Assembly (NCBI RefSeq): GCF_003334335.1
Contig: NZ_QOWQ01000070.1
Direction: 5' to 3' (one strand)
From: Escherichia coli
GTDB taxonomy: Bacteria; Pseudomonadota; Gammaproteobacteria; Enterobacterales; Enterobacteriaceae
DNA length: 7,938 bases
The notes below the pieces were generated by a model, which was not told where the DNA came from, searched no databases, and saw only the letters and a list, made by a program, of their open reading frames with translations. Of the stretch, positions 1 to 174 are shown one piece after another; position 1 is the first letter of the stretch, and each line of letters starts with the position of its first letter. A program made the position numbers and the translations under genes.

Positions 1-174
1 ATGATTGAACAAATTAACATCGCTCTTGAGCAAAAAGGGTCCGGGAATTTCTCAGCCTGGGTCATTGAAGCCTGCCGCCGGAGACTGTGCTCAGAAAAAA
101 GAGTTTCTTCTGAAGCAAACAAAGAAAAGAGTGACATTACTGAATTGCTCAGAAAACAGGTCAGACCAGATTGA
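1..174 (+). CDS. Small 57-aa protein, possibly ribbon-helix-helix-like; may be 5'-truncated by the window edge
   Basis: Open frame from ATG at position 1 to TGA at 172-174, translating MIEQINIALEQKGSGNFSAWVIEACRRRLCSEKRVSSEANKEKSDITELLRKQVRPD. The pattern of a short beta-strand followed by a helix (NFSAWVIEACRRRL) resembles Arc/CopG-type RHH proteins. It is below the 60-aa ORF-track cutoff and no upstream context is available. Confidence 0.4.
   Translation: MIEQINIALEQKGSGNFSAWVIEACRRRLCSEKRVSSEANKEKSDITELLRKQVRPD

Follow-up and report, generated by a model that had tools for sequence, protein, structure and literature searches.

The Qin prophage gene ynfO of Escherichia coli lies in a cos-proximal slot of lambdoid phages and probably encodes a ribbon-helix-helix protein

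The stretch of Escherichia coli DNA analysed here (7,938 nucleotides of contig NZ_QOWQ01000070.1, hereafter the window) opens directly on a small reading frame that turns out to belong to ynfO, a gene of the Qin cryptic prophage. Frame 1 is open from an ATG at position 1 to a TGA stop codon at positions 172-174, i.e., over 57 codons, a size that is unremarkable in itself, since the window holds 56 open reading frames (ORFs) of at least 40 amino acids. Window positions 1-700 are 100% identical to DNA of strain K-12 MG1655 and of many further E. coli strains, and ~72% of the complete genomes of the species (3914 of 5426) contain related DNA. In the annotated K-12 Qin locus (L001, whose position 3001 is window position 1), the genes are ordered nohA (Nu1-like, minus strand), ynfO (plus), ydfO (plus), gnsB, ynfN, cspI and the lysis cassette; the annotated ynfO spans 2941-3174 and encodes a 77-amino-acid protein of the YlcI/YnfO family (Pfam DUF3950). 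Window positions 1-174 (plus strand) are the 3' three quarters of this gene: they match K-12 at 100% identity and hold codons 21-77 and the stop codon, the ATG at position 1 being the internal Met21 and the true ATG lying 60 nt upstream. The full product is MSTKNRTRRTTTRNIRFPNQ/MIEQINIALEQKGSGNFSAWVIEACRRRLCSEKRVSSEANKEKSDITELLRKQVRPD, the slash marking the window edge, which falls on an internal methionine and so makes a cut-off gene resemble a complete small ORF. The initial annotation had described a 57-amino-acid frame starting at position 1 and had allowed that it might be the C-terminal part of a longer gene. The frame and its stop codon stand, the gene starts further upstream, and the suspicion of a longer gene was correct. 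The gene was already known and annotated, as an uncharacterised member of the y-ome; what is new here is the assignment of a fold to an existing DUF family. We found no published function for ynfO, DUF3950 or ylcI, whose mentions in the literature are gene lists or similarly incidental rather than the subject of a study (e.g., the listing of ynfO among the uncharacterised genes of Qin; PMC11551758).

YnfO is a direct member of the YlcI/YnfO family (NF041551, PF13132 DUF3950, PHROG 949). Against NCBIfam NF041551, which has a curated cutoff of 30 bits, the full-length protein of 77 amino acids scores 36.6 bits and the 57-amino-acid fragment, matching only from profile position 13, scores 21.1 bits. 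The Pfam model PF13132 is matched over its entire length (1-30 of 30; E = 5.1e-21) by YnfO residues 21-50, and the full protein covers positions 1-60 of PHROG 949 (E 6e-34), the fragment positions 21-60. YnfO shares an N-F-S motif with other members of the family, such as YlcI of prophage DLP12, and the same slot beside a Nu1-like gene. It differs from them by a C-terminal tail that is longer and unrelated (77 amino acids in all, versus 64 in lambda), and the family as a whole is without an assigned function. Many apparent homologues (P0014-P0120; phage records OR974317-OR974325) come from contigs of ~3.5 kb with frameshift-like variants, bear unexpected taxonomic labels (Staphylococcus, Bacillus, a spider, a Campylobacter phage) and resemble error-laden copies of the right end of lambda. 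Such records are probably sequencing-control lambda DNA, and inflate the apparent size and host range of the family. A tblastn match in Pasteurella phage Pmp7 (L010 3501-3659; 39.6% identity, E = 4e-5) is weak and lies within a 10.7-kb element bearing a primase; it is either spurious or mis-called in strand. The label "transcriptional repressor" attached to it was set aside, because it belongs to an annotated gene on the strand opposite to the DUF3950-like frame.

Comparison of homologous sequences places the start of the gene securely at the upstream ATG, 60 nt before the window. In the homologues of Shiga toxin (Stx)-converting phages, this ATG is preceded at 7-11 nt by a strong Shine-Dalgarno sequence (GAGGA), and most of 120 representative homologues, taken from a search of 1.84 billion proteins, align from query residue 1. 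Extending the sequence upstream, as the initial annotation had suggested, revealed the in-frame start, and the Shine-Dalgarno sequence was seen in the Stx-type homologues. The 20 codons missing from the window are, judging from the same comparisons, conserved and under coding constraint: over these codons, Qin differs from phage JLK-2012 by eight synonymous and two nonsynonymous codons, and from an Stx2a phage by five and one. Between Qin and JLK-2012, the proportions of synonymous and nonsynonymous differences are pS = 0.70 and pN = 0.15, giving a ratio of nonsynonymous to synonymous rates (dN/dS) of ~0.08 with synonymous sites near saturation; for the copy in the L004 prophage, dN/dS is 0.06. 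The pair Qin and lambda is uninformative on selection, as the two do not differ between cosN and ~codon 46. We regard the ORF at 1-174 as real because of its homology (DUF3950, PHROG 949, NF041551) and of the purifying selection acting on its homologues. Two other frames covering this segment, an overlapping frame-2 ORF at 5-184 and an antisense ORF of 88 amino acids (L001 2913-3179) that has another length in lambda, were rejected: neither has support from homology, and the substitution pattern fits frame 1.

Could the 57-amino-acid frame starting at Met21 nevertheless be the real product, a two-helix peptide lacking a strand? It does open with an ATG, a few database entries start there (e.g., P0122, P0191, P0193), and the Pfam DUF3950 domain spans only residues 21-50. 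Yet no purine-rich stretch or Shine-Dalgarno sequence was found before Met21, and the residue is replaced by isoleucine or leucine in homologues (codon 21 is ATA in JLK-2012, and most of the distant members have leucine). The 20 upstream codons show the excess of synonymous changes given above and carry an invariant I-R and a near-invariant F, and the fragment falls below the NCBIfam cutoff that the full-length protein exceeds. This possibility is essentially refuted.

The architecture of the protein was delimited with an alignment of 21 clean and diverse members (35-77% identity). I15, R16, F37 and V41 are invariant, F17, S38, W40, A44 and C45 nearly so, and P18 is usual. In the alignment, a basic N-terminal arm is followed by I-R-F-P, an amphipathic helix, a loop ending in N-F-S, and the motif A-W-V-x-E-A-C. 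The conserved strand-like segment, R13-N-I-R-F-P18, is encoded in the 20 codons outside the window, which itself encodes only two helices and a variable tail. Positions 1-36 (all features on the plus strand) correspond to residues 21-32 of helix A, which begins outside the window at residue 19 in the AlphaFold2 model (helix 19-32) and aligns onto helix A of the repressor Arc with hhalign. The inter-helix loop G33-S-G-N36 (positions 37-48; loop 33-36 in the model) is followed by the core of helix B, residues 37-50 (FSAWVIEACRRRLC, positions 49-90), modelled as a helix from residue 37 and ending with the DUF3950 match (residues 21-50); the N-F-S motif straddles the end of the loop and the start of this helix. 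The charged C-terminal tail, residues 51-77 (positions 91-171), is not conserved among Qin, lambda and Stx-type homologues, and the DNA identity between Qin and lambda breaks at ~codon 46-50.

The initial annotation had proposed a small ribbon-helix-helix (RHH) protein on the basis of a beta-strand followed by a helix within the 57 residues. That pattern is absent from the window: its first residues, MIEQINIALEQ, are already helix A, and the strand-like R13-P18 lies upstream. The basis of the call was wrong because the fragment holds only two helices and a tail, the diagnostic strand being encoded before them. The fold itself is very probable all the same. The AlphaFold2 monomer, built from a 43-sequence alignment, has a mean predicted local distance difference test score (pLDDT) of 70, and of ~71-80 over residues 11-50. 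Residues 13-18 are extended and unpaired, residues 19-32 form a helix, residues 33-36 a loop, and a further helix starts at residue 37. In this model of the protein, structure prediction having been put forward as a check, the window part covers helices A and B and the extended segment lies upstream of it. The order of elements is that of RHH proteins (strand, helix A, tight turn, helix B), with segment 13-18 not assigned as a strand in the monomer; an unpaired extended segment is what one expects of a monomer, because the RHH sheet is intermolecular. When the model was compared with the PDB using Foldseek, the matches of low root-mean-square deviation (2.0-2.7 Å over 35-43 columns) were nearly all RHH proteins, namely Arc, the N-terminal domain of MazE6, NikR, ParD2 and ParB of pCXC100, or TCP-domain chains, which we take to be RHH-like. 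Structures of Arc were the best matches (2.2-2.5 Å). Against AFDB50 there were six matches, none significant, including a CopG-family protein and NikR at 2.0 Å.

Profile comparisons point in the same direction. Aligned by hhalign with Arc alone, the family profile places NIRFP on NLRWP and then continues into helix A (P = 0.003); Mnt and CopG also align their strand and helix A in register, and the controls Cro and Xis align over only 1 and 6 columns. Against a profile of 26 Arc sequences, the score reached 20.2 (P = 8.4e-4, probability 24%, 25 columns in register), a short alignment that remains below the usual HH-suite confidence. This profile is shallow, as the homologue search returned only close relatives of Arc (at least 72% identity). 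Column shuffling gave a null score of 9.1 ± 2.4, and 20.2 was reached in one of 200 shuffles of Arc and none of 200 shuffles of DUF3950, so that the real match exceeds 399 of the 400 shuffles; the reversed profile scores 6.4. Distant members of the family repeatedly gave sub-threshold matches to an Arc-like repressor PHROG, the HicB family (E 0.05-0.17) and the archaeal regulator CdrS. Helix B appears to fit as well: a manual alignment sets V33, I37, V41 and F45 of Arc on F37, V41, C45 and L49 of YnfO, with one extra residue in the loop. Together with the modest confidence of the Arc-profile alignment, several results limit the certainty of the assignment. The best Foldseek match in the PDB has E = 1.2 and none is significant; no Pfam RHH family, Arc included, is matched by YnfO or by the family members searched; neither YnfO nor the family alignment found a meaningful match in the PDB by sequence or profile search; and AlphaFold2 prediction of a tethered dimer (core, (GGGGS)x5 linker, core) yielded a pLDDT of 37.5 and no usable model of the intersubunit ribbon. 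Overall, we consider the RHH fold of YnfO well supported, though not proven.

Arc and Mnt of phage P22 (PF03869) are likewise small and phage-encoded, with the same order of elements, and N-I-R-F-P of YnfO matches N-L-R-W-P of Arc. In the Arc-operator complex (PDB 1PAR), N11 and R13 of Arc contact bases. In the Arc register, N14 and R16 of YnfO fall on these two residues, and both are encoded outside the window; the Pfam DUF3950 model likewise omits the probable DNA-reading strand. YnfO differs from Arc in several respects: it lacks a Pfam Arc match, the hhalign alignment does not include helix B, the loop is one residue longer in the manual alignment, and the protein has a basic N-terminal arm of 12 residues and a long C-terminal tail. 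Its gene adjoins cos, not an antirepressor control region of the immI type, and its dimerisation and DNA binding are predicted only.

The location of ynfO is not peculiar to Qin. The cohesive-end sequence of lambda, AGGTCGCCGCCC (the reverse complement of GGGCGGCGACCT), is found in Qin at L001 2730-2741, between nohA and ynfO and 199 nt upstream of the ynfO ATG. In lambda itself (J02459), an intact and unannotated homologue of 64 amino acids lies at complement(48109..48303) (L002 200-394), ~200 bp from the right cohesive end, and is identical to Qin ynfO through ~codon 46. Lambda also carries a ybcV/ydfO homologue at 47045-47452 (minus strand) and a ybcW-like ORF at 47738-47944 (plus strand). 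In the two Stx-converting phages examined, whose packaging module is unrelated and of the HNH/TerS/TerL type, a DUF3950 gene is likewise the first to diverge from the packaging genes, and sits between these and the lysis cassette. Hence, the gene occupies a fixed cos- or packaging-proximal slot that is conserved in lambdoid phages, lambda included; in Qin, lambda and the Stx phages it is antisense to the late operon and divergent from packaging genes of either the Nu1 or the HNH/TerS/TerL type. The region of lambdoid phages between lysis genes and cos carries morons expressed in the lysogen, such as bor. Between cos and ynfO, 70-102 nt ahead of the start codon (L001 2839-2871, outside the window), Qin and lambda share an identical 13-nt inverted repeat, ATCAATTATGACG / CGTATTAATTGAT (85% complementary, 7-nt spacer). 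This repeat could serve as an operator or as a host-factor site, and no link to YnfO could be made. A role of YnfO as an immunity repressor of the CI/Cro type does not fit its location: ynfO is outside the immunity region, at the distal end of the late region, with the lysis cassette on one side and nohA/cos on the other, and the switch of Qin is dicA/dicC (bioRxiv 10.1101/2024.09.21.614188).

Downstream of ynfO, after a gap of 57 nt, the co-directional gene ydfO (DUF1398) occupies window positions 232-642 (plus strand; annotated at L001 3232-3642). We found no terminator-like site between the two genes, and a scan upstream of ynfO revealed no sigma-70-like promoter; ynfO and ydfO are probably co-transcribed in Qin. 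A PdhR-box-like sequence, AACAGGTCAGACCAGAT, with the palindrome GGTC-A-GACC, is present as an exact match at positions 155-171 (plus strand), in the last codons of ynfO and 60 nt before the start of ydfO. A peak of PdhR binding between ynfO and ydfO was reported by genomic SELEX (systematic evolution of ligands by exponential enrichment), with the box AAcaGGTcagACCAgaT matching the PdhR box at 10 of 14 positions (PMC7660256), and the sequence at 155-171 corresponds to this published site. Expression of ydfO is strongly induced by an ionic liquid (117-fold by quantitative PCR). In the same study, no resistance was gained from a plasmid carrying the presumed promoter of ydfO, which the authors blame on the absence of ydfO induction under the test conditions (PMC4077768).

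Taken as a whole, these observations make it reasonably probable that YnfO is a small Arc-type RHH protein acting as a sequence-specific regulator of a leftward transcription unit of lysogen type; regulation is the most likely function, and we hold this part of the proposal with even confidence either way. The protein would comprise a basic disordered arm (residues 1-12), the strand R13-N-I-R-F17 ended by P18, helix A (19-32), the N-F-S loop, helix B from residue 37 and the variable tail. By analogy with Arc, Mnt and CopG, we infer that the strands of two subunits would combine as an antiparallel ribbon entering the major groove of DNA, where N14 and the invariant R16 would take the positions of the base-contacting N11 and R13 of Arc, and that helix B would touch the phosphate backbone with its N-terminal end. 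The regulatory target would be the leftward moron unit between the lysis and the cos/packaging genes, i.e., ynfO-ydfO in Qin. The regions upstream of Qin-type and Stx-type genes show no sign of a shared operator, with one shared 7-mer versus 5.3 expected, despite identical predicted DNA-reading strands.

Other functions have to be weighed against regulation. RHH antitoxins are common in prophages, and YnfO could be the antitoxin of a type II pair in which the downstream DUF1398 protein YdfO is the toxin. In Qin, the two genes are co-directional and 57 nt apart, with the small gene of DNA-binding type first. The predicted fold is shared with RHH antitoxins (ParD, MazE6, KacA, the C-terminal domain of HicB), as is the order of domains, with the RHH at the N-terminus and a variable extension at the C-terminus, and the low-deviation structural matches, albeit weak, include MazE6, ParD2 and KacA. 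One distant homologue is also followed, 22 bp on, by a very hydrophobic ORF of 59 amino acids. However, DUF1398 is directly downstream only in Qin-type arrangements: it is present in 43 phage records versus 155 for DUF3950, it is absent from the two Stx-type phages examined, where the DUF3950 gene is solitary, and in lambda the two genes are ~650 bp apart with the ybcW-like ORF on the opposite strand between them. Distant members encoded in chromosomes have as neighbours a second tandem DUF3950 gene, the 59-amino-acid hydrophobic ORF, or nothing close. Furthermore, conservation of the protein is lowest in the C-terminal tail, where a toxin would be bound, and overexpressed YdfO raised oxidative-stress resistance and was not toxic, according to a report as cited in PMC4077768. 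An obligate toxin-antitoxin pair is quite improbable, because there is no conserved partner gene adjacent to ynfO and neither YnfO nor YdfO matches a PADLOC model. A second explanation, that ynfO no longer has a function in K-12 and persists in Qin as an intact but inert reading frame while the prophage decays, seems unlikely but less so. Qin is defective and its neighbouring genes are damaged (a frameshifted ynfN, a truncated tail gene), no promoter-like site was found upstream of ynfO, and the 100% identity of Qin and lambda in this region leaves no K-12-specific evidence of selection. On the other hand, strong purifying selection acts on the family as a whole, thousands of E. coli genomes have kept the ORF intact, and the strong inducibility of ydfO implies that the unit is transcribed.

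The family might instead act on DNA packaging by binding near cos or the terminase genes and modulating packaging or interfering with it, for example with that of competing or helper phages. With either of two unrelated packaging modules, the first gene beside cos or the packaging genes is always this one, and in two members from satellites that carry their own TerS (P0208 and P0190), DUF3950 is joined to the DNA-binding domain of a small terminase (Pfam Terminase_2, 2.7e-11; PDB 2cmp/4zc3, E ~2e-4). In their islands, which carry TerS and a capsid-like gene, these fusion genes and a second DUF3950 gene are flanked by int plus a small ORF on one side and by a primase operon on the other. Such a position between integration and replication genes suggests a regulatory role, and only the fusion to a terminase domain hints at a connection with packaging. 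The gene is moreover antisense to the late operon that encodes packaging, its position alone is weak evidence since the slot between lysis and cos is usual for lysogen-expressed morons, and chromosomal members are far from any phage genes. Packaging of lambda has been reconstituted in vitro without such a factor, and cosmids work without it. We consider a packaging function improbable. Its more specific version, in which DUF3950 proteins are dedicated cos-proximal RHH factors of lambdoid prophages and satellites that act on cos or terminase, e.g., by excluding or redirecting the packaging of competing cos phages, is more doubtful still. If it were true, the fusions of DUF3950 to terminase domains in satellites would be the clearest trace of this role, and phage lambda would carry an overlooked functional gene at complement(48109..48303).

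Satellite-like islands with DUF3950 genes were observed at L004 5590-6363, in L005-L007 and at L003 4714-5103, with int, a small ORF, a D5-type primase, TerS and a capsid-like gene. Their DUF3950 genes are divergent from the replication operon, and occur in tandem in L004-L006. The island in L004 lies inside a prophage beside HNH and TerS fragments, and resembles the helper-embedded satellites described previously (bioRxiv 10.1101/2022.07.18.500453). Outside phages, tandem DUF3950 paralogues are found at L015 261-464 and 552-737, and the DUF3950 gene with the downstream hydrophobic ORF at L016 5001-5393; this very hydrophobic, two-segment product could be a small membrane-protein partner. Elsewhere in the window, ynfN (1139-1411, minus strand) is frameshifted in the RefSeq K-12 record, yet is a 90-amino-acid ORF here; the annotation places two small genes, ynfR and ynfQ, immediately downstream. 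Two full-length matches to the Rfam cspA thermoregulator, at 4509-4901 and 1614-1999 (both minus strand; 158.8 and 112.8 bits, respectively), form the leaders of two cold-shock genes of the prophage, cspB and cspI.

The practical value of these results is modest, and the understanding of prophages is unchanged by them. Their interest is for the family: a DUF family present in ~72% of complete E. coli genomes gains a testable fold and a testable mechanism, those of an Arc-like RHH protein that would bind DNA.
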